A stretch of DNA of 63,310 bases, the filler included, from Basidiobolus ranarum (lineage: Eukaryota), in the NCBI GenBank assembly GCA_040143965.1. It is 36 parts of 36 records of this genome, joined end to end, with 100 filler letters (N's around TTAATTAATTAA, not from the genome) between each part and the next. Parts side by side here need not be neighbours in the genome. Positions count along the whole stretch, not along the records: positions 51,145 to 52,798 come from JASJQH010004617.1; 35 more parts are not named here. One strand, 5' to 3'. This document shows positions 735 through 61,559 of the stretch, piece after piece. Under the pieces are notes generated by a model that saw nothing but the letters and a program-made list of their open reading frames with translations, made no database searches and was not told the origin of the DNA. The translations under genes were made by a program, and so were the position numbers. Within the stretch, counting starts at the first letter, position 1. Every line of letters begins with the position of its first letter.

Positions 735-746
735 GGTTATGAGCCC
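735..746 (+). promoter_or_regulatory. PBS GGTTATGAGCCC (half-tRNAi-Met type); also at 6907, 13579, 35539, 43524, 51601(-), 60438(-)
   Basis: Abuts the LTR end and is complementary to the initiator-tRNA anticodon arm GGGCTCATAACC. Confidence 0.9.
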
Positions 747-5310: not shown

Positions 5311-5646
5311 CTTCAGGTTTTTCAGATTGCAGGTGAAAGCCAAACAACCATTTGAACATGAAGGTAATTTAATTACTGAAGGATAACAAGTCATACAATG
5401 ACAAGTGTTTGCCACTTATACCAGGTCTGTGGCAAGCAACAGTCACCAATCAACTGTGGTAAAAGTGTTAGAAAACCAATCAACACCTGGTTGCTAAGAT
5501 TGGATTCAACTCTCCACTCCTCAATAATCAAAGCTGCTTCCTTTACTGTAAGTGTTATGAGTAGACTAATGCTTGCTGATAACAAAGAGTCCATAACAAA
5601 ACCATCATCATCTTCTTCAACTTCTGATTTACTACCATCAATACCC
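5311..5646 (-). pseudogene. CMC transposase N-terminal fragment
   Basis: QVLIGFLTLLPQLIGDCCLPQTWYKW, shared with the copies at 18.2 kb, 40.4 kb and 42.2 kb. Confidence 0.8.
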
Positions 5647-6528
5647 CCCTAACAAAAATAAAATCAATTTAATCCAGATTAGATCCACCTTCATGAATAG
5701 CAAAACCACCAGAGAACCATCACAATATTGGTGGCTTGCATTCTGCCACAGATTTTGATGATGTGATGGCAGTTTCTTGACTCTATTTTGACAATATTTT
5801 TACATATTAAATTATTTATCCTCAAGTTTGGCATGCATTATTCAATATCCAGTAAATTTTGCAAAAATATAACTTTGAATGGCAAATTACTGGGTTTACT
5901 GCTGTAGGAATTTGAATTAATATGCATGCCTTTATTTAGATATTTTACACTTTGTATTCCAGCTGTAATGAGAATCAAAAAATAGAAGAATCTGGTTGTA
6001 TTTAGTCTCTACATATGCACATACTTTACTGATCAGACATAACTCAACAACATCAATTTGCTTTACCAGCACACTAAAGGTGCAAAAATTGCCAAATATC
6101 TGAAATTTTGAACTGCACTGACACTTGGCAACCAGCTGACTCTTATTACTATTCACAATGAGAATAAGCTCTTGGATTTTGGCAAATTTCTGTAAAGAAT
6201 TCAGCCAATATATCCCAACTTGCAGTCAACAAATGTCATGCCACAAATAAATATGTCATTGCTTGAATAGATTGCCCCATGGCTAAAACAATAATACTGC
6301 GTATCTTGATCTATATCACCAAGAAGTCTGTCTTGCATTTTTCCTAAAAATACTGTCAGATTATCACACTAATAAATTAGTCCATATTATTGAGATACTT
6401 ACTCTGTGTTCTTGGATTAGGCTTTGTTGCTGGTATTGTGCTGAAACAATGCAAAAACCCATGAGCACATTGAAAAGAGTCCTTGTTAGAAGGTTAATAT
6501 ACTGTTGAGTCTCCTTCACCCATTGCAT
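5647..6528 (-). mobile_element. CMC element right terminus (CCCTAACAAAAAT...) plus transposase 3' end; same terminus at 5184
   Basis: Starts CCCTAACA and runs into transposase C-terminal sequence (QCAHGFLHC) also seen at 21.5, 47.8 and 58.8 kb. Confidence 0.78.
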
Positions 6529-6979
6529 AGTTGAAGTTCATTGTCTTTATCATATTTGTCATCTCTATCTTTATACACCTAACTATTTTGTATATCACAT
6601 ATAATTCGGTTAACATTACTTAGTCATTAATTACATAATTTAAAATTGGAACAAATAATATATAAATATGCAAATATTGTGAGAGTTAGCAATTCCATAT
6701 TGGAAATTCCAAACTTTTCTAAATTGCCCCAAAGATAGCTCATTTTACTCCCACAGATGTTCTCAACACAACCCCAATGTTAGTTTTCTGTATTTCCACC
6801 AAAGTGTATAAATGCTTTATTTCTGGACAATAAATAATTATCTCACAAAGCTATTCCCAACTCCACTTTTCTAAAGCTCCTCCAAACAGCCCATATTTTC
6901 CCAATAGGTTATGAGCCCCAAGTACTAACCTCTACAGCATGATAGAAACTACTACTACCACTTTCATTAACTCAAGTGT
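6529..6979 (+). mobile_element. copia 5' LTR-B (to 6906), PBS and gag start (MIETTTTTFINSS)
   Basis: LTR-B end CCCAATA followed directly by GGTTATGAGCCC and the family-B gag start. Confidence 0.9.
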
Positions 6980-13429: not shown

Positions 13430-14053
13430 ATTATCTAAGCATGTCTAATAGCTCTATTTCATAGTAAGCTATACATAGGACATATTCTATTCAATTAAAC
13501 TTAAGTGTCTAATTAACAAATCCAAATCTGGTCAAATCTGGTCTAAAGCACTTCCCAATCCCCTAAACACTTTTATCAGGGTATGAGCCCCAAGCTAGCT
13601 GTTAAAGGAATGTCTACCAGCACTATTACTAATGCTTTGGCATCCACAGAGAAGTTTAATGGTGAAGACTTTCACCTTTGGAAGTTCAAGATACCAATGG
13701 TGCTAGAAGACTAGAACCTATGGGGATTTGTAACAGGAGAAGAAATAGAGCCAGAGGGACCACCAGGAGCTATCCTTGTCTTTCACAAGATGTAGAGGAA
13801 AGCACTCTCTACACTTTTTCTAAAACTCATAGACTCTCAATTGAGGAACATGCAATAAGCCAAAGACTTCCAAAATGCTTGGAAAACACTTGAGGTTCTA
13901 TATGAGACTAAAATTCTGGCTCATAGGCTATATCTTAGGCAAAAATTGATAAAAGTGTTTAGGGGATTTGGAAGTGTTTTGGACAAGATTTGGATTTGTG
14001 AATTAGACACTTAAGTTTTATTGAATTGAATATGTCCTATTTATAGTTTACTA
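13430..14053 (+). mobile_element. LTR-C 3' part (to 13578), PBS, family-C gag (13610-13947), then an inverted LTR-C insertion (13948-14053)
   Basis: CACTTTTATCA-GGGTATGAGCCC, then MSTSTITNALASTEKFNGEDFHLWKFK. Confidence 0.85.
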
Positions 14054-15565: not shown

Positions 15566-15637
15566 GGGCTCAACCGGGAATTGAACCCGGGACCTCCACG
15601 ACCCGAACGAGGAATCATACGACTAGACCATTGAGCC
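15566..15637 (-). tRNA. tRNA-Pro(CGG)
   Basis: GGCTCAA/TTGAGCC acceptor stem, anticodon loop TTCGGGT, T-arm CCGGG-TTCAATT-CCCGG, downstream T4 run. D-loop has CG instead of GG and the anticodon stem has one T-T mismatch. Confidence 0.88.
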
Positions 15638-20872: not shown

Positions 20873-21121
20873 TGATAAAAGTGTTTAGGGGATTTGGAAG
20901 TGTTTTGGACAAGATTAGGATTTGATAATTAGACACTTGAGTTTTATTGAATTGAATATGTCCTATTTATAGTTTACTATGAAATAGGACTATTGGATGT
21001 GCTTAGATCGTAACAAACATGCCTGTTAAGCATGGGTGAAAATTTGAGATGATTTGGAGAAGTTTTGAGAAAATAGTGAAAATTGGTAAAAGTGATCTAA
21101 TTGATATTTCTATCAATTAGA
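20873..21121 (-). mobile_element. LTR-C, truncated by contig end
   Basis: Near-identical to 4036-4280. Confidence 0.88.
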
Positions 21122-21221: not shown

Positions 21222-22738
21222 CAATGAGAATAAGCTTTTGGATTTTGGCAAATTTCCATATATAATTCAGCCAATATAACCCCCACTTGCAGTCAACAAA
21301 TGTCCTGCCACAAGTAGATGTGTCATTGCTTGAATAGATTATCCCATGGCTAAAACAATAATACTGCATATCTTACTCTACCTCACCAAGAAATCTGTCT
21401 TGCAGCTTTCCTAGAAATACCATCAGATTATTACATAAACAAATTAGTACAAATTATAGAGGTACTGACTCTGTGTCTATGGATTGTGCTTTGTTGTTGT
21501 TATTGTACTCAGACAATGCAAAATCCCATGAGCATATTGAAAACATCCTTTTGTTGGAAGGTTAATATACTCTGGAGTCTCCTTAACCCATTGCATTACA
21601 TTCATCACTGATTTTACTGATACAATGTTAATCAGATTATCATATGGTAATACTGACAATTTCACATGGAGCATAATTTCACTGCAGGTGCACTTGATTG
21701 GGAACTCCCAGAATGTATAGCAAGGGCCTATAATATCTAAGCATTGTGAAAGATGCAGCAGGGAATGTATTGAATATCAGCATAGATTCAGTCTGTCTTC
21801 TTCATACCTGCAATAAAGCTCTTCATATCCTATTACACAATCTTTGCACAGTCACTCTATCTGCCTGAAATATGCCAATGTGAGTTGATGCCATAAGAAT
21901 ATATTAACAATATCCACAAACAACTACCAATGTTGCCAGTACCTATCAGGCAGAAATCTTTTCAAGATTCCACTTGTATATATACAAATCCAATACTTCT
22001 GGTCTCTGCATTTGATAAATGCTTAGATGAGTGGATATTTGTGGGAGTCCTGGTAAAATATGATGGTATCTTTTCAGATTCAAGCATTTTCCCAATAAAT
22101 TCAAACTTTGATACTATCTCAAATGACTCACTCATATTGAATTTTTCACTAGATAGCTAAGTAAGTAGTGTTGGAATGTTGTTGTATAGTAAGTGCATAG
22201 TGCCTATTGGGAAGCTCTGGCGCCAGCTGATCCCCTTTGGCAATATAATCTTAGGCTTATGGCTAATACCAAGCTTGATGTTAGACTAACTATGTGGTGA
22301 ATTAATATTGGTGATCATGTTAAAATCTGACTGGGTGGTAGATGGTAAAATCATGGAGTTTAGCTTTGTATTTGGATAGTAGTAACAGGTATGCCTGATA
22401 GAGTAGACTCCAATGATTTGACAAAACCTACAGCAAGATAGTGCATTGTGCCTGCAAAAACCTCCAAGTTTACTGATGGCAGGAGTGTCACCAATTCATA
22501 CAATGATATTGGCTTTAACTAAATATTCACCCATCTGTACCCCATTAGATAACCATTCAAATTCCACAATCAAAGGCTCCAAGAAGCTATCTATAAGCAC
22601 TTTCGATTTAGGTCCAGATATGATGGATAGTATCAAAATATTATGCCTCTTATACAGTTGAGAAGGAGGAAGGTTTAATTTGATTAAAATTATTGGCCAG
22701 CAAGCCTTTCCAATGGTATATTTGTTAAGTGAGAAACC
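21222..22738 (-). pseudogene. CMC transposase core and 3' region; LTR-B insertion at 22739-22886
   Basis: GDTPAISKLGGFCRHNALSCC and FWEFP motifs, with stops. Confidence 0.9.
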
Positions 22739-24751: not shown

Positions 24752-26141
24752 TATATATATATGATCTTATTATAGCTACCAACAATGATTAATATCACAC
24801 GAACATCAAAAGAAAGATATACGTCCAATTAAAGATTACAAATTTAGGTGAAGTTATATAGTTATTATGTCTGCAGATCCATACATATATATTTGGAAAA
24901 TCTATTACTCTGAATCAATCTTAGTACATCTCAAACATTCTCAGATGTTACAGGATGGAGAATGGCAAGCCAGTAGCAACTCCCATGGATCCAGATGTTA
25001 AACTAGTCAAAAATCCCATCAAAAATGATGAAAATTGGCCAAATATGGCTCAAAATATGTCATTTGAAAGCCCTGAGTTCCCATATCAATCTATGGGAGG
25101 TAGTTAGATCTATGCTATGACTGGAACCCAACTAGATGTTTCTTTTGCAGTGGGAGTAGTCAGCCAACATGTGCAAAACCCGGGATCTGAGCATTACACA
25201 GCAGTTAAGCAGATTTTCAGATATTTGAAGGGGACAATTGATCTGGGATTAAGATAGACATATTCTTAGGGGAAGACGATCTAATTGGTTTAGTGATGAA
25301 GATTTAGGACATGGTATTGAGGACAGAAGTTCTATCACTGGATATACCTTTCTCTACAGTGAAGCAGCCATACCTTGGAATAGCAAGAAATAACCCACCA
25401 TAGCACTTTCAACAACTGTAGCAGAATATATGGCAGCATCACATACAACAAAGGAGGCTATGTGGTAAAGAAAACTACTTAAAGACTTGGGCATTATTCA
25501 AAGTTTACCCACCATAATTTTAAGGATAATTAAAGTTGTATTTCTTTATCTAAAAATCCCAAATTTCGTGCTAGAAGTAGGCACATTGACATTCAACATT
25601 ACTTTGTCAGGGAGGCTATTGAGAATAAGCACATCCAACTACAGTACTGCTCAACTGAGGACATGATTGCTGACCTCCTTACCAAACCATTACCCAAGCC
25701 AAATTTGAAGAATTAAGATTTAAGTTAGGATTAAGATATATGAATATTTAGTTGAGTAGGAGTGTTGAAGTTTATGGTCTTTATCATATTTGTTTCCTCT
25801 AACTGTGTACACCTAACTATTTCATATAACACATATATGTTAGTTAACATTACTTATTCAAATATCACTTAACTGAAAACCAGAACATATATTAAATATA
25901 TATATATGAATATTGTGAGAATTAGCAATTCCATATTGGAAATTTAAAACTTGTCCAAATTGCCCCAAAAATAGCTTGTTTTACTCCCACAGATATTCTG
26001 GACATAACCCCAGTGTTAGTTTTCAGTATTTCCACCAAAATATATAAATGCCTTATTTCTGAACAATAAATAATTATCTCACAAAGCTATTCACAGCTCC
26101 ACTTTTCTAAAGTTCCTCCAAACAGCCCATATTTTCTAATA
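24752..26141 (+). mobile_element. copia RT/RNase H, PPT (GTTGAGTAGGAG) and 3' LTR-B (25763-26141)
   Basis: RSSITGY, STTVAEYMA, RHIDIQHYFVRE, EDMIADLLTKPL, then PPT and TGTTGAAG. Confidence 0.93.
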
Positions 26142-26515: not shown

Positions 26516-26628
26516 GGCATAGCATACAAGGACTGGTAGCTCAATGGTTAGAGCACCTTGCTAGAGTGAAGGAGGTCCCAGGTTCAAATCCTGGCCAGAC
26601 CAATATTTCTCCCTAAATAATTTCAATA
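26516..26628 (+). mobile_element. LTR-A 3' part (tRNA-containing LTR, copy 1)
   Basis: Matches the reverse complement of 51614-51727. Ends TTTCAATA and is followed by CMC sequence. Confidence 0.88.
26530..26602 (+). ncRNA. tRNA-like cassette inside LTR-A
   Basis: 73-nt cloverleaf: A box TAGCTCAATGG, D stem GCTC/GAGC, T arm CCAGG-TTCAAAT-CCTGG. Mismatches at A3:A70 and G31:G39. Confidence 0.85.
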
Positions 26629-28278: not shown

Positions 28279-29261
28279 AGCTACATTTGTGCCAAGCTTG
28301 GGGCTTCTAGCACAAGCTTGAAATATCTATATATATGAGAACTACTAAATTTGTAAAAATATTCCAAGTAGTTCCAATTGAGAATAGTGGGTACTATCTT
28401 AGTGAAATATGGAATTCCTAAATAGCAAGCTATTTATGACTATATAGATGTCTAGTCTATGCTGATTTCACCAGTGATAGTGTTATTTGCCTATATACCC
28501 CAAGTTGTAATTGAGGCTTGAGCCTTTACTTTACTACTACAGTAAGTGCCATATTGTTCCTAAAAGCTGTATTATAAATTGGGATAAGGCAGACTGTGAG
28601 TTAAGGGCTAAAGTAAACAATTCTAACCTCTTGCTTTATGATTTAAACATAAGCCAACTCTATGTTAAAGTATTTTTTTGGGAGCCTTTTGATGTTAGAG
28701 TTTTTTTGAGCCTGTTGGAAGTGGTTTAGAGAAATTGGTGGTTTTTGCTTATTGATTTATTGCATAGAGTGTTGACATTTATGCTTTTATCAAGATATAA
28801 ACAAACAAATATGTAGAATGTGTTGCAATTAGCATTGCCTAAGCACCTATATAGTCATATATAGTTTAGTATTTAGTTATCTTATATTTCACTAAGATAT
28901 TATCCATTATTCTTGTTGAAATTTATATTGCCTAAACACCTATATAGTCATATATAGCTTAGTACTTAGTTATCTTATATTTCACAAAGATATTATTCAT
29001 TATTCTCAATTGGAATTTACTTTGAATTTTCTTACCAATTTAGAAGTTCTCAGATATATAGACTTTTCAAACTTGTGCTAGGAGCCCCAAATTTTGGACA
29101 CATGTTCCTGAGACCCTTATTAACACATTCCACACATTATTTTGCTTACATCTTGACAAAGCTAAAAATGTCATCTTTCTACCAAATAAATCAATAGGTG
29201 AAAACCACCAATTTCTCTAATTCTCCAAACCACTTCCAACAGGCTCCCAAATACTTTAACA
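28279..29261. mobile_element. Nested and inverted LTR-D cluster; + copy about 28820-29261 has an internal duplication
   Basis: LTR-D blocks in both orientations. ATTGCCTAA.CACCTATATAGTC occurs twice. Confidence 0.85.
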
Positions 29262-35323: not shown

Positions 35324-36983
35324 CCTCAAATTTTCACCCATGCTTAACAGGCAGGTTTGTTATGATCTAAGCACGTCCAATAATCCTACTTTATAGTAAA
35401 CTATAAATAGGACATATTCAATTCAATAAAACTTAAGTGTCTAATTCACAAATCCAAATCTTGTCCAAAACACTTCCAAATCCCCTAAACACTTTTATCA
35501 TTCTAAAGTTCCTGCAAACAGCCCTTATTTTCCCAATTGGTTATGGGTCCTGTGTTCTAGCCTTTACAGCATGACTGAAATCACTACTACCACTTTTATT
35601 GACTCAAATGTTGAAAAGCTTGATGGAGAATATTACAATCTCTGGAAGTGCATGATGCAGATCATGCTGGAAGACAGGGAGCTTTGAGATGTAGTCTCTG
35701 GAGCTGAAACAGAACCTTTTGACCCTTCTATATTAGAAGCTTACCAGAAAAGAGACAAGAAGGCGTTTAATGTCATTTGTCAATGTTTGAATCATTCACA
35801 ACTTGTGAATATCCCATCAAGCTTGGACTATATTGGAAGAATGTTACAAAGCAAAGAGTCTTGCTGATATACTTTTTCTCCAATGAAAATTCTTCAATAT
35901 AAAGATGGAAAAGTCTGACAGCATGGTTACTCATATTGCAAATGTGCTTTGGCTAAGCAACTGGAAAATATTGGTGCAACTTTACAGGAAGAAGATGTCA
36001 TTATGACTCTTCTAAATAGTCTACCAGAATAGTATTCAAACTTAGTCACAGCTTTGCAAGCAAGATATGACAAGTTGACCTTGGAGTTAGTTGTGGCAAG
36101 GCTATGTTTATAACAGGCCAGGACAACAGTTAAAAGATTGCAAATCAAGTAATTACAACAAAACTGAGAAATTAGAAAAGGCAAATCCAGTGTCAACTAA
36201 AGAGCAAATTTTATGCATTTCTGCTCATCAGTGACCACTGAACAAGACTGTGGGTTGTGGTGTATTGATTCTGGAGCCTTTCAACATTTCTCTAATCAAA
36301 AAAACTGGCTTGGGACACTCAAAACTGACATAAACAAGAAGGTGTAAATAGGAGATGACCAGCCACTAGAAGCTCTGGGAGTGAGAGAAATTGAAGTAGA
36401 TCTTGGGGGCATCTCTGGGGACATTAATTTGACATTGCAAAATGTGCTATATGTGACTAGGATAGCAAAAAATTTGTTATCAGTGAGTAAAGCCTCATCT
36501 AAGGGATATGGCTTTAATTTTGATCAAAATGGCTGTACAATCAAGGATCAAAAAGGCAATTGCATAGCTTCTGGAGCTGAGCAAAATAACTTGCAAAAAC
36601 TTCATTATATCAGGCAAATATATTAATATGTTAATACTGCCACAGCTGAAGAGATAGACTGGAAAATCTGGCAGAGGAGATTGGGTCATCCAGCAGCTGA
36701 AAATATGGCAATTTAATTAAAAACAAAATGGTTTTGGGACTAATTTTTGTAATTCCACCAGATCTAGAGTTATGTGAAGGTTGCCCATATGGTAGGCAAC
36801 ACCGACAGCCATTAGTGAGCTCTGGAATGAGCAAAATTGATCAAAAATTGAGTGTGATACACTCAGATCTGTGTGGCCCAATGCAGACAAAATCCTTTGG
36901 TGGAAAAAGGTTTTTTGTGACCTTTATTGATGATGATGCAGAGTATACTTGGGTGTTCTTTCTTGCATTAAGGACAAATCCTT
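35324..36983 (+). mobile_element. LTR-C (to 35500) abutting the tip of LTR-B, PBS (35539), family-B gag-protease-integrase pseudogene (from 35571)
   Basis: MTEITTTT..., IDSGA, NVLYV..IAKNLLSV, CEGCPYGRQHR, IHSDLCGPM...FVTFIDD. Confidence 0.92.
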
Positions 36984-43175: not shown

Positions 43176-44019
43176 TGTTGAAATTTGCTTTGCCTAAACA
43201 CCTATATAGTCATATATAGCTTATTACTTAGTTATCTTATAATTCACTAAGGTATTATCCATTTTTCTTAATTGTAATTTACTCAGAATATTTTTACCAA
43301 CTTTGATGTTCACAGTTGTATAGGTTTTTCAAACTTGTGCTAGAAGCCCCAAGCTTTGCACACATGTTCCTGGGACCTTCCTTAACAGATTATACATGTT
43401 AGCTTGCTTACATCTTGACAAAACTATAAATGTCAACTATCTACTTCATAAATCAATTAGTGAAAACCACCAATTCCTCTAATTCTCAAAACCACTTCCA
43501 ACAGGCTCCCAAATGCTTTAACAGGTTATGAGCCCCAAGCTTGCACTCTCTGTAATGTCTACTTTTCAAATTTATAGAACTTTTCCTTCTTCTGAAAAAT
43601 TGGATGGAACCAGTTATCAAGTTTAGAAGATTAAAATGAAAAGGCTACTGCAAGAAAAAGGACTTTGGGACACTGTTGTAGGAGAAGAAAACAATACAAA
43701 ACTATCTGAAACCAAAATTTTACTCCAAGTCAAAAAAGAACAAAGTGCCTTTAACACAATTTGTCTTAATGTTAAAGACATATTGCTAATTCAATGTTCA
43801 AGAGCTAAAACTGCCAAGGAGGTATGGAAAGCCTTGGAGCACATCTACCAAACAAGTTCTACTGCCAACAAGATGTTTCAAAGAAGACAATTCTTTAACT
43901 TAGAAATGATGCCAGCAGAAGACATTGAATCACTAATTAGTAGAGCAACTATTTTAGTGGATGAAATGGAATACAATGGAGTACCTACCACTGATCAAGA
44001 TATCATAGTTACAGTCCTG
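43176..44019 (+). mobile_element. Family-D element 5' end (LTR 43176-43523, PBS, gag from 43555) nested in an RT
   Basis: TGTTG...AACA-GGTTATGAGCCC, then LQEKGLWDTVVGEE...TAKEVWKALE. Confidence 0.93.
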
Positions 44020-44119: not shown

Positions 44120-44321
44120 ACTAAGTAGGGCGTCCTCCGTTTGGAATGCACCGTATGCAAATACAAGATGCAACTCTCTTTGAAGCGTTGCAAGCACTTC
44201 GAACTTGGTGGTGACAAGAAGACCAAGGTCAGCATATGCTCTGACAGCCTTCATGACGTTATTTCTAACATATACATACTTTATATCTCATTACATATAG
44301 GGTGCTGCTCTTGTTTTCTAA
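44120..44321 (+). CDS. RPL42: 60S ribosomal protein eL42 (L44/L36a), 3' exons 44120-44227 and 44301-44321
   Basis: [38 protein letters not shown] with a 73-nt GT..CTAAC..TAG intron. An in-frame TAG lies 6 nt from the contig edge. Confidence 0.95.
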
Positions 44322-44922
44322 ATCCATCATTTTACTCTTTAACGCGTCTAAAGTCAATAAAATCCTATGATCTCCGGATTTTTAAACTGAGTTGTATATT
44401 GTTCATGAAACTTCAAATTTGTATTGTGTGAAAAGCAAATAGGAACTCTCGGGTAACTCGATTGTTGGAGTTTGACACATTGTGGCGCTTCTAACGCATT
44501 GCGCAAAGGGGAAACAAGCAAAGAGTACGATCATTGAAACAGTGGAATGAGCTCGGATGACAGTATCTAAATTATATATGCATTATCTTGAAGACAACAA
44601 ATGCGCTAGTTTTGAAATTGATAAACTTACAAACGATCAAAGAATGTCAACTAGGAACTGCTACACATCTTGACAAACGAATCATGACGAAAGAAACGAT
44701 ATTTTTGAAGATAACAAATTCCTCTCATTAAACTGATAGCATTCAGTACCGTGAGAGCTGCTTTTAAATAATGAATTGGTTTATCAAGTATATAACACAC
44801 CCGTAATAAATTACTCAATCTCACTAAGAAAATACGAGAAGATATAATAAAAAGTAACAAGAAAACTCTATCCTAAATTAACGAACAGAAGATAAAAACA
44901 CAGAAAAATCAAATAAAGAAGA

Positions 44923-45665
44923 TTATATCTCTTGCTTGTTGATAGTATCAATAAGAGACTTCATTAATTCTAATTGAGCATTAAATATACTCTGCATTTC
45001 CATTTCTCTAGCTCTGGCACGTTCCTCTCGCTTTTGTATTCTCTCGGCGCGTTCTTTTAATTTCATTTCGTACTTTTCCTGACGAGCTTGTAGGTCCTCT
45101 TCACGTTCTTTCGAGCGTTTTTCGTCGCGTTGGATAAGATATGTGACAAGCTCACAAAGTTGATCAACCATTTTGCGTTTCTTTTGAGGCTGGGCGGCAG
45201 ATGAATCATGCTCATGGTCATGCTCATCTTCATCCATCATAGAATCATCTCCCAGTGTAAGAGCGCCGTTGTTGTTACGCATAATATTGAAAGGATTTGG
45301 AGAAGAAGACTTGGAATCCTTATGCTCGGGAGTTCCAATGTGAGTAAAGTTACCAGAAACCAGCCTTTTGAGATCTTTGTAGTAGTCAAAATTCTCCACG
45401 GCTTCAACATCCTCCACATCGTCAATAAGACAAGCCTATGTTAATAGTTTGCTTTAGAATAAGCACTATAAAACTATGTTTAAAAATACACACCTTATAT
45501 TTGGCCATCAATACACGAACACGACTTTTACACTGAGCAGCATTACGATCGAAGCCGGCTGCTCTAAGTTCCTCGGCGATACGATCCCAAACTGTTGAGT
45601 TCCGCTTATATTTTTTGAGCTCATTGTAGTATTTCTCCCACAACTTTAAAAGAAGCTTGTCGGCG
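44923..45665 (-). CDS. Trihelix Myb/SANT-like DNA-binding protein with C-terminal coiled coil; intron 45436-45493; 5' end unresolved
   Basis: LLLKLWEKYY...RNSTVWDRIAEELRAAGFDRNAAQCKSRVRVLMAKYK|ACL...FDYYKDLKRL, then an E/R-rich coiled coil. CpG retained. Confidence 0.85.
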
Positions 45666-45876
45666 TGGCTCCCGGATTTGATTCAACACTTACTGAACCG
45701 ACTCCTAATTGTTGTTTAATATAATACAAAGCTCGTAAATTATAAGTATTTTGAGAAATTTTGAATGTTAAAGTTCNNNNNNNNNNNNNNNNNNNNNNNN
45801 NNNNNNNNNNNNNNNNNNNNTTAATTAATTAANNNNNNNNNNNNNNNNNNNNNNNNNNNNNNNNNNNNNNNNNNNN

Positions 45877-47744: not shown

Positions 47745-49289
47745 CTTGCTCTGTGTCCATGGATTGGGCTTTGTTGCTGTTATTGTGCTCAAACAATGCA
47801 AAAACCCATGAGCACATTGAAAAGAGCCCTTTGTTGGCAGATTAATATACTCTGGAGTCTCCTTAACCCATTGCATTACATCCATCACTGATTTTGCTGT
47901 TACATTGTTGATCAGATTAGCATACAGTATTACTGAGGATTTCACATGGAGAATCATTTCACCACAGGTGTGCTCCATTGGGAACTCCCAGAATGTATAG
48001 CTAGGGCCAAAATCTCTAAGCATTGTGAAAGATGCAGCAGGAAATGTATTGAATACCAGCACAGATTCAGTCTAGCTTCTTTAAACCTGTAATAAAGCTT
48101 TTCATATCCAATTACAAAATCTTTACACAATTGCTGTATCTGCCTGAGATCTGTCAATGTGAGTTGATGGCATAAGAATATATTATCAATATTGCCAAAC
48201 AACTCCCAATGTTGCCAATACTTATCAGGTGGAAATCTTTTCAGAATTCTACTTGAATATATACAAATCTGATACTTCCAGTCTTTGCATTTGAATAAAT
48301 GCCTAGATGAGTGGATATTGACAGGAGTCCTGGTAAAATATGATGGTATCTTGGCCTTTTCAAGCAGTGTCCCAGTTGATTCAAACTTTGATCCTATCTC
48401 AAACGGCTCATTCATGTTAAATTTTCTACTATATAGCTGAGTAAGTAGTGTTGGAACGTTGTTGAATACTAAGTGCATGGTACCAAATAGGAAGCTCTGG
48501 CTCCAGCTGATCCCTTCTAGCAATATAATAATAGGCTTATGGCCAATACCCAGTTTGATGTTAGACTAACTATTTGGTGAATTGATATCAGTGATCATGT
48601 TGAAATCTGACCAGGCTCTTGATGGTAGAATTACAAAGTTTAGTGTTGAATTTGGAAAGTAGTAATGTGTATCCCGGTTAGAGTAAACTCCATTGATTTG
48701 ACAAAATCTACAGCAAGATAGTGCATTATGCCTGCAAAAACCTCCAAGTTTACTGATGGCGGGAGTGTCACCAATACATACAATGCTATAAGCTTTCATA
48801 AAATATTCACCCATCTGAATCACATTAGATAACCATTCAAATTCCGCAATCAAAGGCTCCAAGAAGCCATCTATAAGCACTGGTGATTTAGGTTCAGATC
48901 TAATGGATAGTATCAAAAGATTATGACTCTTACACCATTGAGAAGGAGGAAGATTTAAGTTAATTGAAATTATTGGCCAGCAAGCCTTTCCAACAGTATA
49001 TTTGTTTAGTGAGAAACCATCCAGAGCCAATGCAAATGCATGATCATATGTGTTCTCAAAGAAACCTTGACTTTTCAGATTCTGGTAGTGATATCCATCA
49101 AGTATATTGGTAATACCATCAGCTTTACGGTGAGTACTTCGGTATTGGATCAATGATCTATATTTGGGTGATTTCATCAAAACTTTAAGACAGGGAATCA
49201 ATGGTATGTAAGCCAAATATGAACAATATTTACCTGATTCAGTGATTGCCAATTGTGTGCAAACAGTACATGACTTCAGGTTTTTCAGA
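47745..49289 (-). pseudogene. CMC transposase core (best-preserved copy)
   Basis: LALDGFSLNKYTVGKACWPIISINLNLPP, GDTPAISKLGGFCRHNALSCCRFC, FWEFPMEHTCG. Confidence 0.93.
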
Positions 49290-49772: not shown

Positions 49773-51144
49773 AAGTTGTAGGTAAAGTAAAGAGAAATAA
49801 GGCTTTGCAAGATAAATGCAGAAATAACGTTGCCAGCATCTATCATCATCTAACTCAAGCATATTTATATGTATATATATACCTCGAGGTATCTTCCAGT
49901 AATATAATACCAATACCAAGTATAAAGCATTAAGTAAAGGTGATTCCCAGATGCTAACTTAAGACGAGATCATAAAGTGTAGGGTCAGAGTTAGAGATAG
50001 GTTTAGGTTTAGCCTAATTGGCTACGAATGGAATTTAGATATTAAGGTCGAAAAATCCAACAATTGATGTGTTTGGAATTTAGACGCACCAACCTAGAAC
50101 ATTGCAGAATAAGATGAGCACATCGGAACAGAGAGAAAGCTGTGTGAAGTAGGAAACATAGGAAGGCACCTCTTCAGATTTTGACGCGTCCATAGTGTAC
50201 GCAGAAAGTTGGTGATCTATCATCTTTCTTGAGTTACCAAGACTATTATTTCAGTGGGTAATCTAGATTAGGTAATCTAGATCAGGAGTGTGGTCTGTTT
50301 ATAAAAATGTTAGGGACTTCGCCTTTATATGGATGTCCTTACCTATTATTAGACAAGTATTTTTAAAAGTTTACTTGAGGTAAACAGGCACATGGCTTCT
50401 TCCATACGTTCTACTGGGTAACATACCAACTCCAACTGGATTTTTGGTTTAGTACCAAAAGCGCCAGTGAACACAAAGCGCCAATTAAGCAGCTATGTTA
50501 CATTATAGGTATTGGCATGGCATAAGAGACTGATTGTTTAATGACAAACAGGAATATTGAGTTGGCACAAGAAACAGGTTATAAGAGTACAGTATACAAG
50601 TGATACTTTTCCTTCACTTGATGCCACACGCTAGCTCACTTAACACTATGTCATTTTAATATTCAGAAGTTCATTAGCTGTAAACAGTCAGAAATAAAAT
50701 AAATTTAAACGCTATATGACGCTGGTAACTATATACGAAGCCCGGTATAGCTTGAGTGTTCAGGCCCCACTGTTGAGAGAATTATCCACCATGGCTCAGG
50801 ATACATGGCAAGTTAGATACTGCTAATGCTAGTAGATGAACAGGAAGTAATATCAAGTATCCATCAGGTCCTGGTATATTTCAATTCAGGAATATTTGGT
50901 AAAACTCGTCTATATATTTTGTGTTTATTTTGACAATGTATGTATATGGTAATTCGGATATAGTTGCTTCTATAAAAGAAGTGTTGAATTTCGACCGAAG
51001 ATGTGAAGTACATTATGTTGTTACTGACTATGAACCAAACCAATNNNNNNNNNNNNNNNNNNNNNNNNNNNNNNNNNNNNNNNNNNNNTTAATTAATTAA
51101 NNNNNNNNNNNNNNNNNNNNNNNNNNNNNNNNNNNNNNNNNNNN

Positions 51145-51581
51145 TGTAAAGTTGCACCAATATTTTCCAGTTGTTTTGCCAAAGATCTCACATTTGCAAT
51201 ATGAGTAACCATGCTTTCAGACTTTTCCATCTTTATATTGAAGAATTTTTGTCTGCAAAAGAGTCTGTTAGCAAGACTCTTTGCTTCATAATATTCTCCC
51301 AATATAGTCCAAGCTTGATGGGAAGTCTTTGCATAATGAATATTTGCAAGTTATGAATCCTTCAAACTTTAACAAATTACATTAAAGGCCTTCTTGTCTC
51401 TTTTCTTGTAAGCTTCCAATAAAGATGGGTCAGAAGGTTCCTTTTCATCTCCAGAGACTATATCCCAAAGCTCCCTGTCTTCCAGCATGATTTGCATCTT
51501 GAACTTCCAGAAATTGAAATTTTCTCCATCAAACTTTTCAACACTTGAGTTAATAAAAGTGGTAGTAGTGGTTTCTGTCAT
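51145..51581 (-). pseudogene. gag: copia gag (family B) downstream of LTR-A and PBS
   Basis: MTETTTTTFINSSVEKFDGENFNFWKFKMQIMLEDRELW, with one TAA after FNVIC. Confidence 0.93.
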
Positions 51582-51613
51582 GCTGTAAAGGTTAGAACAC
51601 AGGGCTCATAACC

Positions 51614-51894
51614 TGTTAAAATTATTTTAGAGAGAAATATTGGTCTGGCCAGGATTTGAACCTGGGACCTCCTTCACTCTAGCAAGGTGCTCTAACCACT
51701 GAGCTACCAGTCCTTGAATGCTACGCCTATATTACTAGGGAACCTTAACCTAGTCTGTCAATGTATGGTACTCTGGCATTTCAGTTTTACAAGCAACTGA
51801 TTGGCCTTAGACTTTGGGTTTGATGCAGTCACCATACTCAATATTTTCCTCTTTGGGAATTACTGCTTGTATCACAAGTACCAGACTTTCAACA
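51614..51894 (-). mobile_element. Complete LTR-A acting as 5' LTR (copy 2); PBS at 51601-51613
   Basis: In element sense: TGTTGAAAGTC...TTTTAACA, then GGTTATGAGCCCT, then gag. Confidence 0.92.
51641..51713 (-). ncRNA. tRNA-like cassette in LTR-A, same sense as gag
   Basis: GGACTGGTAGCTCAGTGGTTAGAGCACCTTGCTAGAGTGAAGGAGGTCCCAGGTTCAAATCCTGGCCAGACCA. Confidence 0.87.
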
Positions 51895-52798
51895 AATGCT
51901 CTGTATGGAATTTTCAGTATTACCATATGCTAAACTCATTAACAATATATCAGCTAAATCAGTGATGTATGTAATGCAATGGGTTAAGGAGACTGCACAG
52001 TATATTAACCTTCCAACAGATGGCCCTTTTCAATATAAATGTGGTTTTTACATGGTTTGAGCACAACAGCAGCAACAAAACCTAGCCCATGGACACAGAG
52101 TAAGTACTGCTATAATTTGGACTAATTTATTTGTGTGATAATCTGACAGTATTTATAGGAAAGATGCAAGACAGACTTCTTGGTGAGATAGATTGCAATA
52201 CACAGTATTATTGGACTTGTTCCATTGTGCCAGGATTTATTGGACCTTAGATCTATATATTAGAGTAAATGTGATTGAAACTGATCATGCTGGAGGGTGC
52301 TGGATAGTGCCAAATTATGCTGCATAAATCTTTTAATACTTTATCTAATATGATATATACAGCACAATCTGGCACTATCACAGAGAACAAGTTCATTGTT
52401 TTAGCCATGGCATAATCCAATGAAGCAATGACACATCTACTTGTGGCAGGACATTTGTTGACTGCAAGTTAGGGATATTTTGGCTGAATTCTTTACTTAA
52501 ATTTGCCAAAGGCTAACTTCAATATACTAAACCAGCATGCAAACAGTGGAAAAGTTGATAAACATCTGGAATTTTGAATAGCACTGACGCTTGGCACATA
52601 GCTGAATCTTGTTACCATTCACAATGAGAATAAGCTCTTGGATTATGGCAAATTTCTATGAAGAATTCAGCCAAAATATCCCCAACCTGCAGTCAACAAA
52701 TGTCCTGCCACAAGTAGATGTGTCATTGCTTGAGTTGCTTATCCTATGACTAAAACTATAATAGTGTGGATCTGAATCTTTGTCACGTAGGAGTCGGT
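51895..52798. mobile_element. CMC transposase 3' fragments, first + then -
   Basis: VMQWVKET and related 3' sequence; orientation switches near 52520. Confidence 0.75.
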
Positions 52799-53112: not shown

Positions 53113-54552
53113 TGTTGAAATTAGCATTGTCTAAACACCTATATAGTCATATATAGCTTAGTACTTAGTTATCTTATATTGAACTAAGATATTATCCATT
53201 ATTCTCATGAGGAATTTACTTAGAAGTTTGAAGATATATAGATTTCAATAACTTGTGCTAGAAGCCCCAAGCTTTGCATACATGTTCCTGGGACCTTCCT
53301 TAACCCATTCTACACGTTAGTTTATTTACATATTGACAAAAGTATAAATGTCAACTGAATACTCAATAAATCAACAAGTGAAAACCACCAATTTCTATAA
53401 TTGTCCAAACCACTTCCAATAGGCTCCCAAATACTTTAACATCAGGAACATCTATACAAAGCTTAGGGTCTCTTGGACAAGATTGAGTAAATCATATCCA
53501 AGTTGGTAAAAATATTGTAAGCACATTCCTCATGAAGATACTGAATAATAATAGTGAAATTGAAGTAGCCAACTATATAACTATATTGATGCTTTAGCTA
53601 TGTCATTTTCAGCATATTTTTCTATATTGACAATTATTACACACCTCCTAGATATAAAGTAGATGATGTTTACCAGTGTTTCACTCATACAAAGTGCCTC
53701 TTGAAGCACCTTTCCTTCATAAAAATTACAAATAATGTTATGATCTGATGTTAAAATTGTGGGAGACTTGTACTCTTTCTCTGACAGCAACAAATATATG
53801 CATCAAATGGAGGCCTATTCAAGAGAATATCACTGGCAGCTTCACGGATTGTATACAATATGATACATTGCCATGAGCCCATAGTAAAATCTTTGGAGTT
53901 GGGTTCAAAGTCTTAATGTATTGGGGGGCCTGTTGGAAGTGGTTTGGAGAATTAGGGAAATTGGTGGTTTTCACTTTCTGATGTATTGAGTTTTTGGTTG
54001 ACATTGATAGTTTTGTCAGGATGTTAACCGACTAACATGTAGAATGTGTTAAGGAAAGTTTGGGGCTTTTAGTACTGGTTTGAAAAAGTCTATATATTTG
54101 AGAACTTCTAAGTTGGTAAAAAATATTCTCAGTAAATTCCAATTGAGAATAATGGGTAATACCTGAGTGAAATAAAGAATAACTAAATATTAAGCTATAT
54201 ATGACTATATAGATGTTTAGGCAATGCTAACTTCACCACAAAGGTGAGTTAAGCCTGTTGAAGTATTTTGGGAGTCTGTTGGAAGTGATCAGAAGAACTA
54301 GAAAAACTGATGGTTCTGATATATTGCTTAGAAAGTTGACATTTGTAATTTTGCCAAGAGGTAAGCAATATGTATGCAGAATATGCTAAGGAAGGTCCCA
54401 AAACCATGTGTGATATGTTTGGGGCTTCTGGCACAAACTTGAAGAATCTATATATCTGAGGACTTCTGATTGATGTAAATTTTCAATAAAATTTCCTCTT
54501 GAGAATAGTGAGTGATATCTATTAAAGTATTTGGGAGCCTGTTGGAAGTAGT
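53113..54552. mobile_element. LTR-D cluster: + copy 53113-53441; - copies about 53915-54240, 54256-54520 and 54520-54552
   Basis: Repeated LTR-D termini and internal blocks. Confidence 0.85.
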
Positions 54553-56529: not shown

Positions 56530-58057
56530 CAAGCAATTTTGGATTGTTGTGTAGGCTTAATGGTCCAATACATATTCTACTCTGCTAGATTGTCAAGGTG
56601 ACATTCATATGTATGGTGTGGGATTGATTGAAATCCTATATGAGAATGGATGGAGGGAGCAGCATGCTGCTGTATTTCAAGTACAGCATTCTGAAGGTCT
56701 TGTATCATTGTTAAGTGACTCTCTGACTGTTGACTAGTTTCTTCCAAATACTGCATTAATTGCACTATTGCAGCATTATTGCTTGTCATGGCCTGTATAG
56801 CAACTTTGTAGTTTTTACTTATGACTGCATACAAATCATTACATTGTTCTGCCTGCAATTCCCTTGACGTAATAATTGTTGAAATTATTTAAGGATAAAT
56901 ATTGGTCTGGCCAGGATTTGAACCTGGGACCTTCTTCACTTTAGCAAGGTGCTCTAACCACTGAGCTACCAGTCCTTGTATGCTATTCATGTATTGCTAG
57001 GGAACCTTACCTAGTCTGTCAATGTATGGTATTTCAGCTTTACAAGCAACTGATTGGCCTTAGACTTTGTGTTCAGAAACAGTCACCATACTCCATATCT
57101 TCCTCTTTGGGAATTACCGCTTGTACCATAAGTCACCAGACTTTCAAATGTAATTCTATCCAAGTTTTTTACAGAGGGTTGTTCAATAGTGGGCAAAGTA
57201 GCCATTTTAGAGGTTGATGGTCTTGATGGTGTTTCAGTTGAACTTTGTTCAACTATTGATTTGCTACATAATTGGGGGATTATAATCTCTTCCCTTGCAC
57301 TATTGCTTGAAAGGAACACATCTGGTAAATTGATTAATACTTCATCATTACTTCAGTTAGTTTCTGGCATGTTAATGCCTTCCAAAGTGGATGGTGGATT
57401 GCTAGACTGCTCATCAATTAAGTCCTCTGTTCTTGCTGGTCTTTTTCCTTTTGTGCCAGCAGGCTTTGGTTTGGAAGCTGATTTTGACTTAGATTTTGAA
57501 CGCTTTTTGATTGGCAATGATATTTTCCAATGGTAAATTGGTGTATTGAAATTGCTTAAAACAGCTTATAATAAACAAAATTGCCATCCATTACTGGAAG
57601 CATGTTGTAAATCCCCTAATGACTTATCTGTGACACTGTCTCAAAATCAGCCAATGATATTGATGGGCTATACCTAAAATACCCCACTTACATGGGAGGT
57701 GTTATTTTTGCTACAATATCCTTCTGATGCCACAACAGAAACTTTTAAAGAAGCCCTGCTATTATTGTCATAAATTCTTGTGCAATGAAAGCTGAAGGCT
57801 TCATTAAAAAATAATCACAAGCATGGTCACTGTACAAAGCCACCAGCTGCACAAAGCCTGGTGTATAACAACAGTAATAACTGCACTAAATTGAATTTAA
57901 CTTTGGCCATTGAGTTGACTGACTGTAGTTTGCCTCAAAGTTTTGGTAACACAACCAAAGTCAAGATACCATGGAGTTACCACAGTTATATGACCAGAAT
58001 GATGTAGGTCAAATGCAACTTTGGTCAAACCAGTAAGTCCAGACAACTGTGAGGACT
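56530..58057. mobile_element. CMC central region (ORF2 -, spacer, transposase 5' +) carrying a solo LTR-A
   Basis: Colinear with 33950-35200 once 56877-57154 is removed. Confidence 0.88.
56877..57149 (-). mobile_element. Solo LTR-A (copy 3); tRNA-like cassette 56903-56975
   Basis: Flanked by ATAAT/GTAAT (4/5 TSD match). Empty site GTA-CTAAT-TCTATC seen near 39301. Confidence 0.9.
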
Positions 58058-58157: not shown

Positions 58158-59808
58158 GCAACGTTAATATAATGATGGGCTTTGATGGAGATATTGATAC
58201 AAACTTGTGTTGGGTATGAGCCAAACCTTGGGTATGAAGAACTCTATATAATTATTCAGGAGAATATATCAAAGAGACTAGGGATTTCAAAGGTGACAAT
58301 TTAGTGTTAAAGAGGTAATTGTGTAAAATTTGAGTTATATTTTTGCACATGTGTTGTTCCATAGTACTCTGAGATTTTAGCCAATCATGCAAAACTATTT
58401 TGTGAGATCTTGAAATTTCACTCCTGAAACTGAAAAAATTGATTAAAATCAAATCTAACCTGACAAATTTATGATGGTTAGTGAACAGTCAATCACAAGT
58501 GGATTAAAATTGTGATGGTTTTCCTACAAAAACAATCCTCAAATTTCTGTCAGGGAATAAGAATAAGCTCTTGGATTTTGGCAAATTTCCATAAAGAATT
58601 CTGCTAATATGTCCCCCACTTGAAGTCAACAAATGTCCTGCCACAAGTAGATGTGTCATTGCTTGAATCAATTACCCCATGGCTCAAACAATAATACTGC
58701 ATATATTGATCTATCTCACCAAGAAGTCTGTTTTGCAGCTTTCCTAAAAATACCATCAGATTATCACACAAGCAAATAAGTCTGATTATAAAGGTACTTA
58801 CTCTGTGTCCATGGATTGGGCTTTGTGGCTGTAATTGTGCTCAAACAATGCAAAAACCCATGAGCACATTGAAAATAGCCATTTGTTGGCAGATTAATAT
58901 ACTCTGGAGACTCCTTACCCCATTGCATCAAATCCATCACTGATTTTGCTGATACATTGTTAATCAGATTAGCATACAGTAATACTGACAATTTCACATG
59001 GAGCATCATTACTATTGAACTTATTTAGGGAGAAATATTGGTCTGGCCAGGATTTAAACCTGGGACCTCCTTCACTCTAGCAAGGTGCTCAAGCCACTGA
59101 GCTACCAGTCCTTGTATGCTATGCCTATATTGCAAGGGAACCTTAACCTAGTCTGTCAATGTATGGTACTTTGGCATTTCAGTTATGCAAGCAACTGATT
59201 GGCCTTAGACTTTGTGCTCAGATGCAGTCACCATACTCCATATTTTCCTCTTTGGGAATTACTGCTTGTACCACAAGTCACCAAACTTTCAACAATTTCA
59301 CCACAGGTGTGCTCCATTGGGAACTCCCAGCAAGTATAGCAAGGGCCTATAATCTCTAAGCATTGTGAAAGATGCAGCAGGGAATGTAGTGAAAACCGGC
59401 ATAGATTCAGTCTATCTTCTTGAAAACTGTAATAAAGTTTTTCATATGCAATTAAAAAATCTTTGCACAGTCCATGTATCTGCCTGAGATCTGCCAATGT
59501 GAGTTGATACCATAAGAATATGTTAACAATATCTGCAAACAACTCTCAATGTTGCCAATACTTATCAGGCAGAAATCTTTTCAAAATTCCACTTGAATAT
59601 ATACAATTCCAATACTTCCAGTCTTTGGATTTGAATAAACACCTAGATGAGTGGATATTGATGGGAGTACTGGTAAAATATGATGGTATCTTGATGTTTT
59701 CAAGCATCTTCCCAATCAATTCAAACTTTCATCCTATCTTGAAAGGCTCATCCATATTAAATTTTTCCACTATATAGCTGAGTTAGTAGTATTGAAGTGT
59801 TGTTGAAT
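58158..59808 (-). mobile_element. CMC left terminus (ends 58555) abutting another CMC transposase 3' half (58556-59808)
   Basis: TTTCTGTCAGGG, then transposase C-terminal sequence. Confidence 0.85.
59013..59294 (-). mobile_element. Solo LTR-A (copy 4); tRNA-like cassette 59039-59111
   Basis: Flanked by ATTAC/ATTTC (4/5 TSD match). Empty site GAGCATC-ATTTC-ACCACAGG near 40736. Confidence 0.9.
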
Positions 59809-59908: not shown

Positions 59909-60830
59909 TTCCAAAGCTGTGACCAAGTTTGATTACTGTTCTGGTAGACTACTTAGAAGAGTCATAATGACATCTTCTTCCTGTAAAGTTGCACCAATAT
60001 TTTTCAGCCGTTTTGCCCAAGATCTCACATTTGCAATATGATTAACAATGCTTGTGGACTTTTCCATCTTTATATTGAAGAGTCTTTGCCTGAGAAAGAG
60101 TCTCTTAGTAAGACTCTTTGCTTCATAACACTCTTCCAATATACTCTAAGCCTGATGGGAAGTCTTTGCATATTGAATATTCACAAGTTGTGAATCCTTC
60201 AAACTTTGACAAATGACATTAAAGGCCTTCTTATCTCTTTTCTTGTAAGCTTCTAATAAAGAAGGGTCTGAAGGTTCCTTTTGATCTCCTGAGACAACAT
60301 CCCAAAGCTCCCTGTCTTCCAGCATGATTTGCATCTTGAACTACCAGAAATTGTAATTTTCTCCATCATGCTTTTCAACACTTGAGTTAATAAAAGTGGT
60401 AGTAGTGGTTTCTGTCATGCTGTAAAGGTTAGAACACAGGGCTCATAACCTATTGGGAAAATATGGGCTGTTTGGAGGAACTTTAGAAAAGTGGAGTTGT
60501 GAATAGCTTTGTGAGATAATTATTTATTGTCCAGAAATAAAGCATTTATACATTTTGGTGGAAATACAGAAAACTAACACTGGGGTTGTGTTCAGAACAT
60601 CTGTGGGAGTAAAATGAGCTATCTTAGGGGCAATTTGGACAAGTTTGAAATTTCTAATATGGAATTGCTAATTCTGACATTATTCACATATATATACATA
60701 ATATATGTTCCAATATTCAGCTAAGTGATATTTGACTAGGTAATGTTAACTAACATATATGTGTTATATGGAAGAGTTAGGTGTATCAAGATAGAGATAA
60801 CAAATATGAGAAAGACAATAAACTTTAACA
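59909..60830 (-). mobile_element. Family-B element 5' end: LTR-B (60451-60830), PBS (60438-60450), gag (ATG 60418)
   Basis: LTR-B, then GGTTATGAGCCCT, then MTETTTTTFINSSVEK. Confidence 0.93.
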
Positions 60831-60931
60831 AACCCTAAGCCCTGAATGGCCCTCACACAAAATTTTGGAGAGCTGCAATGGCTGATGAGTACCAGGCTTT
60901 GATAATTAAACTTGGATTTTAACCAACTTAC

Positions 60932-61167
60932 TGTTGAAAGTCTGGTGACCTGTGATACAAGCAGTAAATCCAAAAGAGGAAAATATGGAATATGGTGACT
61001 GCATCTGAACACAAAGTCTAAGGCCAATCAGTTGCTTGTATAGTTGAAATGCCAAAGTACCATACATTGACACACTAGGTTAGGGTTCCCTAGCAATATA
61101 GGCATAGCATACAAGGACTGGTAGCTCAGTGGTTAGAGCACCTTGCTAGGGTGAATGAGGTCCCAGG
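60932..61167 (+). mobile_element. LTR-A (copy 5), truncated in the T stem of its tRNA-like cassette (cassette starts 61115)
   Basis: TGTTGAAAGTCTGG start. Lies between two parts of a copia RT (60831-60931 and 61168-61559). Confidence 0.88.
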
Positions 61168-61559
61168 ACCAGCTAGATAGATTTGTGGACCCAGAAACCC
61201 TAAAAAAGTGTGCAGACTCCAGAAAACTCTCTATGGCTTAAAACAATCCCCAAGAGCTTGAAATAGCATGATAGACACTTTTTTGGAAACACTCAAATTG
61301 CAAAAGAGTAATTGTGAATATAGTACCTACTTCAGGCCAGATAAAACAAACCCACTTCTATTAGCCTTATATGTGGATGGCCTTATTATAGCAACCAATG
61401 ACTTGAAGACTTGGAGGAAACCAAATACAGCTTATCTGCCAAATTCAAAATGACTGATCTTGGGGAGCTGACATACTATCTTGGAATCTAAATTAGGATA
61501 AATAGAATACCAAAACAGTAACTTTAAACCAGTCTGAGTTTATTCTAGATATACTAAAG
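61168..61559 (+). pseudogene. copia RT fragment
   Basis: VCRLQKTLYGLKQSPRA and LALYVDGLIIA. Confidence 0.9.

Follow-up and report, generated by a model that had tools for sequence, protein, structure and literature searches.

In a 63,310 nt stretch of Basidiobolus ranarum DNA (GenBank assembly GCA_040143965.1; hereafter the window), a long terminal repeat (LTR) with a tRNA-like module, which we call LTR-A, directly precedes the primer-binding site (PBS), leader and gag of a copia family that elsewhere in the window carries a dissimilar repeat, LTR-B. Judged by its sequence, LTR-A has every LTR-level feature of Helenus, a group of TRIMs (each a terminal-repeat retrotransposon in miniature) with a tRNA-like sequence in their LTRs that are thought, in the account of Kojima (2024, PMC10886601), to be mobilised by Copia elements with the same PBS, and a copia family has LTR-B as its ordinary LTR. 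The evidence tips, if only slightly, in favour of a Helenus-type element and the copia family that would mobilise it having exchanged modules to give this junction. In addition, the same kind of LTR/PBS junction occurs elsewhere, at loci in metagenome DNA.

The window is made up of 36 pieces of 1651–1670 nt each, sorted by falling length (S01 to S36) and separated by 100 nt spacers (44 Ns, TTAATTAATTAA and a further 44 Ns; e.g., positions 1671–1770 and 51045–51144); adjacency is meaningful within one piece only, and pieces that stand side by side need not be genomic neighbours. A BLAST comparison of all pieces against all identified nearly every one of them as a mosaic of a few repeat families. 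The junction lies inside a single piece, S30 (51145–52798), and the adjacency of LTR-A and PBS is therefore real at the contig level. The copy with which we compare it is in S35 (59909–61559), and two further sites at which an initial annotation of this DNA had placed LTR-B and the PBS, 6907 and 35539, fall in S04 (5311–6979) and S21 (35324–36983), respectively; both are present at each site, although at 35539 only 38 nt of LTR-B are left.

One primer site, leader and gag behind dissimilar LTRs

The junction in S30 and its counterpart in S35 comprise the following features:

51614–51894, minus strand: LTR-A in 5' LTR position, 281 nt, Helenus-type, TGTTGAAAG...TTTTAACA
51641–51713, minus strand: tRNA-like module in LTR-A (ARAGORN, anticodon AGA; Rfam tRNA 58.6 bits over model positions 1–71 of 71, gathering score 29)
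51602–51613, minus strand: PBS GGTTATGAGCCC, complement of the tRNA-Met anticodon arm
51582–51601, minus strand: leader of 20 nt from PBS to gag ATG, the same in S30 and S35
51145–51581, minus strand: gag fragment of the LTR-B copia family, 145 codons (DUF4219, Retrotran_gag_2), with stops at 51369–51371 and 51351–51353
51896–52213, plus strand: flank of LTR-A, an inverted CACTA/CMC-type piece of repeat family 'XY' (82% identity to S13 135–453 and S34 532–849; Transposase_21 in XY copies)
59909–60450, minus strand: comparison copy, with PBS, leader and gag (170 codons, three in-frame stops)
60451–60830, minus strand: LTR-B, 5' LTR of the comparison copy, 380 nt, TGTTAAAG...CCCAATA

On the minus strand of S30, LTR-A is followed in order by the 12 nt PBS GGTTATGAGCCC, the 20 nt leader, an ATG at 51581 and a copia-type gag (DUF4219, 9.3e-09; Retrotran_gag_2, 2.9e-15). 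The initial annotation had noted about 73 nt of PBS, leader and gag start that appeared identical by eye in S30 and S35, together with gags that stay close in sequence. Base by base, the match is 73/73 (51541–51613 and 60378–60450) and belongs to an exact run of 81 nt (51534–51614 and 60371–60451), and from the PBS inward the two copies agree at 429/469 aligned bases (91.5%). The corresponding body in S21 matches that of S30 at 398/448 bases (88.8%) and that of S35 at 388/448 (86.6%); as the S30 body is as near to each of the LTR-B copies as those are to one another, it falls within the diversity of the LTR-B family. This helper-type body extends for at least 469 nt, including 145 gag codons, up to the contig end, and has no deletion relative to S35 or S21. 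Copia gag domains were found in S30, S35 and S21, with S21 extending to Pol_BBD; at 1.65 kb the pieces are too short to show the order of pol domains. The S30 copy is old and dead, with two in-frame stops in its 145 gag codons and about 9% divergence; the S35 gag, with three stops in 170 codons, is dead as well.

Upstream of the PBS, S30 and S35 are wholly different. The PBS begins on the base next to the end of LTR-A, which is intact to its last base, and the switch thus lies exactly at the LTR/PBS boundary, where the initial annotation had put it. The description of the two LTRs as unrelated holds for their sequence, since the local-alignment scores of LTR-A (281 nt) and LTR-B (380 nt) stay at the level of shuffles (z 0.5 and 2.5) and the only common stretches are terminal, an initial TGTTGAA and a final AA[C/T]A; it has to be qualified for their borders, as both have integrase-type termini and the 12 nt PBS in common, and a third repeat, LTR-C, has them too. 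Residual homology between LTR-A and LTR-B was considered and rejected, the best local alignments being 15–27 nt long with z of 3 or less. On its far side LTR-A is flanked, as the initial annotation had stated, by CMC sequence and not by LTR-B: this is the inverted XY piece, whose family runs into Transposase_21 (CACTA/CMC-type) coding sequence in other pieces, and no LTR-B fragment was found in S30.

LTR-A is present in five copies in the window that are 88–96% alike. It begins TGTTGAAAG and ends TTTCAA[C/T]A, giving an 8 nt terminal inverted repeat and TG..CA ends; these ends, together with two solo copies that have 5 bp duplications (each with one mismatch) and whose target sites are found unoccupied in other pieces, identify it as a real mobile LTR. 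Besides the copy at the junction, its copies are:

59013–59294, minus strand: solo LTR-A (S34), duplication GAAAT/GTAAT, empty site in S13
56877–57147, minus strand: solo LTR-A (S33), duplication ATTAC/ATTAT, empty site in S20
26516–26628, plus strand: 3' part of LTR-A at a contig start, with no PBS after it
60932–61167, plus strand: 3'-truncated LTR-A copy that interrupts a copia reverse transcriptase (RT) fragment

The tRNA-like sequence is full length, lies in sense orientation and ends 27 nt before the 3' end of LTR-A; it scores 50.2–58.6 bits against the Rfam tRNA model in each of the four copies in which it is complete. This tRNA-derived module, which has A and B boxes (TAGCTCAGTGG and GGTTCAAATCC), is probably an RNA polymerase III promoter. 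Selection on the tRNA part was considered and rejected, its edge in conservation being too slight (pooled 92.9% versus 91.1% and 87.8%). Exact 23–30-mers of LTR-A had no matches in collections of viral, metagenome and genome contigs, and the sequences on either side of LTR-A in S33 have no similarity to those in S35. Two LTR-A insertions lie within ~5 nt of the same position in two copies of a CACTA-type repeat (82% alike), in opposite orientations (51895–51912 in S30; 59008–59012 and 59295–59299 in S34; empty site at 21670–21690 in S13), which hints at a target-site preference or a rearrangement. In S35, the 3'-truncated LTR-A splits a degenerate plus-strand copia RT (60832–60931 and 61168–61559) from which ~100 RT codons are missing, and the LTR-B element adjoins this split fragment on the other strand.

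The window holds the PBS 12-mer GGTTATGAGCCC six times, and the LTRs in front of it are LTR-A, LTR-B and LTR-C. It is the complement of the tRNA-Met anticodon arm, and its own complement spans roughly tRNA positions 29–40; ARAGORN places an antisense tRNA-Met gene across the 12-mer in 15 bacterial loci. As LTR-A, LTR-B and LTR-C have the same integrase-type termini and the same site for priming by a 3'-truncated tRNA-Met, they can use the same replication machinery. The gag of the LTR-C family has only about 50% DNA identity to that of the LTR-B family, while its termini and 12-mer are the same. Further copies of LTR-B, and the first LTR-C, are:

6530–6979, plus strand: second LTR-B with PBS and gag start, up to the contig end
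35501–36983, plus strand: third copy, in which the end of another element (...TTTTATCA) cuts LTR-B down to its final 38 nt, followed by PBS, gag and the beginning of pol (Pol_BBD at 36348–36623)
931–1308, plus strand: solo LTR-B (S01) with the perfect duplication AGTCT (926–930 and 1309–1313), inside an LTR-C family gag of which S25 holds an uninterrupted relative
25763–26141, plus strand: LTR-B in 3' LTR position (S15), preceded by the end of pol and a purine-rich GAGTAGGAG
388–746, plus strand: LTR-C (347 nt, 388–734) and the common PBS, followed by a different leader and gag; third copia family

The repeat that cuts the S21 copy (35324–35500, ending ...CACTTTTATCA) was inserted 38 nt before the end of LTR-B and is possibly another LTR; its relatives lie at 4036–4211, 20873–21048 and 13945–14053. 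Further LTR-C sequence was found at 43176–43535 and in many copies in S05–S07, S10, S17, S29 and S31, including head-to-head and tandem clusters in S17 (28283–29261) and S31 (53113–54552).

Coding bodies behind tRNA-bearing LTRs and the origin of the junction

We scanned a metagenome and a genome collection for a tRNA B box followed, after 25–55 nt, by the PBS 12-mer. This pattern identified 51 metagenome and 18 genome loci (given L-numbers), most of them bacterial tRNA clusters. Under a strict Helenus-like rule (a same-strand tRNA ending 14–18 nt before the 12-mer, with CA directly before the 12-mer), 14 of the 51 metagenome loci and none of the 18 genome loci were retained. Five more loci, L010, L011, L025, L041 and L042, resemble these on visual inspection; each falls short on one criterion, and none is counted here. 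A laxer rule was dropped because it admitted bacterial tRNA clusters too (29/69 loci). In eight of the 14 loci the LTR is repeated 70–185 nt downstream, i.e., they have the TRIM form, and all five complete TRIM forms (L027, L034, L024, L026 and L013) have perfect 5 bp duplications; in two more (L028 and L038) the downstream sequence is too short to classify. Four loci have coding bodies and represent three distinct places, L032 and L033 being the same locus. In L009 the domains DUF4219, Retrotran_gag_2, Pol_BBD, gag_pre-integrs and rve stand directly behind the PBS, and L032/L033 has RVT_2. Positions 1–2125 of L040 hold a tRNA-like LTR end, the PBS and an open frame of 636 residues that extends from a gag/protease-barrel region to an integrase SH3 domain, making this locus, by its predicted domains, a candidate autonomous copia with a tRNA-bearing LTR. 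The gag-pol bodies behind tRNA-bearing LTRs lie on contigs of 18.6 and 3.8 kb, in assemblies other than that of the window.

One of these metagenome LTRs, 175 nt long, recurs in six loci whose 5' flanks differ, with nearly the same sequence in all six as judged by eye, and its two copies per locus are 100% identical in L027 and 98.3% identical in L034. With its PBS it precedes three unrelated sequences, each of which starts directly after the 12-mer: the TRIM internal part of L027 and L034, the full gag-pol of L009, and a third leader in L038. In addition, the RT-bearing L032/L033, which has the form of a deletion derivative, shares its first ~75 nt with the TRIM internal part of L027 and L034. 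The case of the 175 nt LTR mirrors that of S30, with one LTR, several bodies and the same joint.

Based on these junctions, the exchange of an LTR and a body at the PBS can be called plausible and recurrent; we infer that it would have happened while both RNAs, packaged in one particle, were being reverse transcribed, and that the common PBS would have served as the joint. Plus-strand strong-stop DNA (U3-R-U5-PBS) copied from a Helenus template could anneal to the PBS copy that ends the minus-strand DNA of a co-packaged helper RNA, in the second strand transfer, and the product would have a 5' LTR-A and a 3' LTR-B, integrable because the termini are in common. By a second route, copy-choice near the polypurine tract (PPT) would put LTR-A at both ends. 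The proposed second strand transfer between Helenus and helper templates would be expected to leave its joint exactly at the PBS. In retroviruses, second-strand transfer is mostly intramolecular. The initial annotation had likewise proposed the replacement of a whole LTR, by template switching at a shared PBS, as a way for a TRIM with a tRNA-bearing LTR to have gained a coding body or the reverse; this is partly supported, in that the junction has the form of a module exchange and fits within the described Helenus/Copia-helper system. Its TRIM component agrees with the class Helenus as PMC10886601 describes it, although no TRIM form of LTR-A is present in the window.

Several observations weigh against an exchange of modules in S30. 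The LTR-A/PBS/gag junction was found once among five LTR-A copies and six PBS sites in the window, and a search of the window for the mini-elements that the initial annotation had suggested (LTR-A/PBS/PPT/LTR-A) identified none, nor any LTR-A pair around a short internal part or any PPT-LTR-A end. The body is known for only 469 nt past the PBS, in a highly fragmented assembly, and the exact run of 81 nt at the junction, in a stretch that is otherwise ~9% diverged, is possibly a collapsed graph node. An exchange at the DNA level fits the data as well as one at the RNA level. Finally, the metagenome gags are only 25–37% identical to those of the window and come from other organisms.

The alternative that survives best, which we nonetheless hold to be improbable, is that S30 carries an ordinary Helenus TRIM with a short internal part derived from the LTR-B copia, like the pair LTR-1_PTrit and Copia-9_PGr, from which the assembler threaded on into the gag of an LTR-B copy. 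S30 and S35 agree exactly for 81 nt from the junction yet differ at 40/469 positions overall, and a run of this length has a chance of roughly 0.03 under uniform divergence, as estimated from the identity counts; the contigs are ~1.65 kb long and almost wholly repeats, and the internal parts of the Helenus elements described in PMC10886601 are short, 621 bp at most. Even with such threading, however, LTR-A would still be tied to an LTR-B-type PBS, leader and first 12 gag codons (81 nt), which was the core observation of the initial annotation. The window holds no alternative short internal part of LTR-A, and gag-pol stands directly behind tRNA-bearing LTRs on the 18.6 and 3.8 kb contigs of the other assemblies. 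As the LTR-A/PBS joint has only ~16 bases in common with the LTR-B/PBS joint, the joint itself should rest on real reads.

Somewhat less probable again is a single ectopic homologous recombination at the DNA level, in which a Helenus-type element and an LTR-B copia crossed over across the PBS and leader and left an immobile hybrid with a 5' LTR-A and a 3' LTR-B. That the junction was found only once, in a dense mosaic of nested and rearranged repeats, would suit such an event, which needs no more than the 5' internal sequence that Helenus is known to share (PMC10886601). It presupposes, however, an LTR-B-type leader on an LTR-A element, so that an earlier exchange would be required in any case, and in the metagenome loci with the 175 nt LTR the switch comes directly after the 12 nt PBS, which is too short for ordinary homologous recombination.

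We give very little credence to the nested insertion of an LTR-A element or solo LTR at the border of LTR-B and PBS, with later loss of LTR-B. Insertions into LTR-B do exist (S21, S03 and S19), but the plain nested case, S21, keeps 38 nt of LTR-B, whereas in S30 a complete LTR-A abuts the first base of the PBS, with no LTR-B remnant in the contig and no PPT upstream; the initial annotation had argued on similar grounds against a solo LTR dropped onto the junction, and we agree. Gradual divergence of LTR-A and LTR-B, as orthologous LTRs in two subfamilies, would account for their common termini and PBS but is scarcely credible, as a non-coding leader identical at 20/20 positions and a body 91.5% identical stand behind LTRs that are unalignable and score like shuffled sequence, and the difference must therefore have come by replacement and not by drift.

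The module exchange that we favour bears on the origin of miniature LTR elements with small-RNA promoters (Cassandra, Helenus and Ajax) and the upkeep of their match to a helper. If it is correct, a Helenus-type LTR on the PBS, leader and gag of a helper means that the two classes exchange whole modules at the primer site, and the tRNA-bearing LTRs on gag-pol bodies in unrelated DNA would indicate the same; this would offer a concrete route for the birth and renewal of such parasites. More broadly, and only tentatively, we speculate that tRNA-bearing LTRs are not limited to miniature non-coding elements but form one reassorting pool with coding copia bodies, whole LTRs being exchanged at the tRNA-Met-half PBS during reverse transcription, and that gag-bearing, perhaps even autonomous, copias with Helenus LTRs (such as S30, L009 and L040) are the intermediates by which TRIMs arise and renew the match to their helper. 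In biological terms the window itself counts for little, the copies being old and dead and the case resting on one 1.65 kb contig; it would count for more if tRNA-bearing LTRs on autonomous copias prove general. In genomes of this kind, predictions of tRNA genes and the assignment of families by their LTRs may mislead.

Other coding and tRNA sequences in the window

Apart from the junction, the copia RT in S02 has at most 59% identity to database proteins and ~45–49% to plant proteins. A tRNA-Pro(CGG) on the minus strand at 15566–15637 lies outside any LTR and is followed by a T-run (ARAGORN; Rfam 49.4 bits); it is probably a genuine host tRNA gene. At 48569–49288, on the minus strand, there is a 240-residue open piece of a Transposase_21/DUF1258 transposase with 84% identity to one 698-residue database protein (P0121), the sole close relative that was found for anything in the window. 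Possible fragments of host genes lie at 44129–44428, with the last part of a ribosomal protein L44 domain, and at 45425–45682, with a Myb/SANT-like domain.

Relation to Helenus and other known systems

Helenus elements (TRIMp3) as described in PMC10886601 are short and non-coding, with whole lengths of 311–1263 bp and a longest internal part of 621 bp. In the entries inspected from the same source, Helenus LTRs start with tgttga, end in ...caata or ...aaca and have their tRNA-like part ~35–38 nt before the end; 5 bp target duplications are given for both fungal and plant members. The 12-mer GGTTATGAGCCC, which is also the PBS of fungal Helenus, occurs 48 times in its sequence file DataS1.fa and heads the Helenus internal parts in the entries inspected. 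LTR-A resembles these elements in its tRNA-like module with A and B boxes, its TGTTGA...CA/TA ends, its 5 bp duplications and its PBS against the tRNA-Met anticodon arm. A comparison of 18–24-mers of LTR-A from outside the tRNA box region identified no matching Helenus entry in that sequence file, and by this measure LTR-A is a new family. Beyond its LTR, S30 is still gag-homologous 469 nt past the PBS, where the contig ends, and the window has no pair of LTR-A copies around one internal part.

The relation of S30 to the LTR-B copias likewise resembles that of Helenus to its Copia partners, with the PBS and 5' internal sequence in common and dissimilar LTRs. In the rust fungal pair LTR-1_PTrit and Copia-9_PGr, 198 bp of 5' internal sequence are common, and long LTR stretches common to a TRIM of this sort and its autonomous partner are considered unlikely, according to PMC10886601; in L009 and L040, by contrast, LTRs with a tRNA stand on gag-pol bodies. 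S30 differs from the pair described there in having a body of at least 469 nt, including 145 gag codons, against the common part of 198 bp, and in the lack of a TRIM form in the window. Kojima (2024, PMC10886601) also remarks that many Repbase LTRs contain tRNA-like parts; that remark aside, our search of the full-text literature found no description of a copia, coding or autonomous, whose LTR is tRNA-like. One PBS and leader behind two dissimilar LTRs is thus the Helenus-helper relation already described, and the difference in S30 is a Helenus-type LTR on a gag-bearing body.

Exchange of LTRs has precedents in other settings. In soybean, Du et al. (2010, Plant Cell 22:48) are said, going by the title of their work, to have found LTR swapping between autonomous and non-autonomous partners; compared by title only, theirs is a plant system whose LTRs lack a small-RNA module. 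Strand transfer and template switching are established as ways in which LTR retrotransposons are shuffled: mosaic copies that arise by strand transfer or copy-choice between co-packaged RNAs are discussed by Drost and Sanchez (2019, PMC6894440), and in sugar beet (PMC13570524) non-autonomous elements have reshuffled their LTRs and internal regions, which act as modules. The cases treated in these two sources are mostly within families or among non-autonomous families, whereas here an RNA polymerase III-type LTR is combined with a coding copia body. Cassandra TRIMs are similar to LTR-A in carrying a copy of a small-RNA gene with an internal RNA polymerase III promoter in the LTR, but have a 5S module where LTR-A has a tRNA, occur in plant hosts and have no autonomous partner given as known where PMC4079214 and PMC10886601 deal with them. 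Priming by a 3'-truncated tRNA-Met, cited in PMC10886601 as the mode of Drosophila copia and yeast Ty5, resembles what the PBS of the window suggests, since in all of these the site pairs with the anticodon region of the tRNA and not with its 3' end, although the hosts and families differ.

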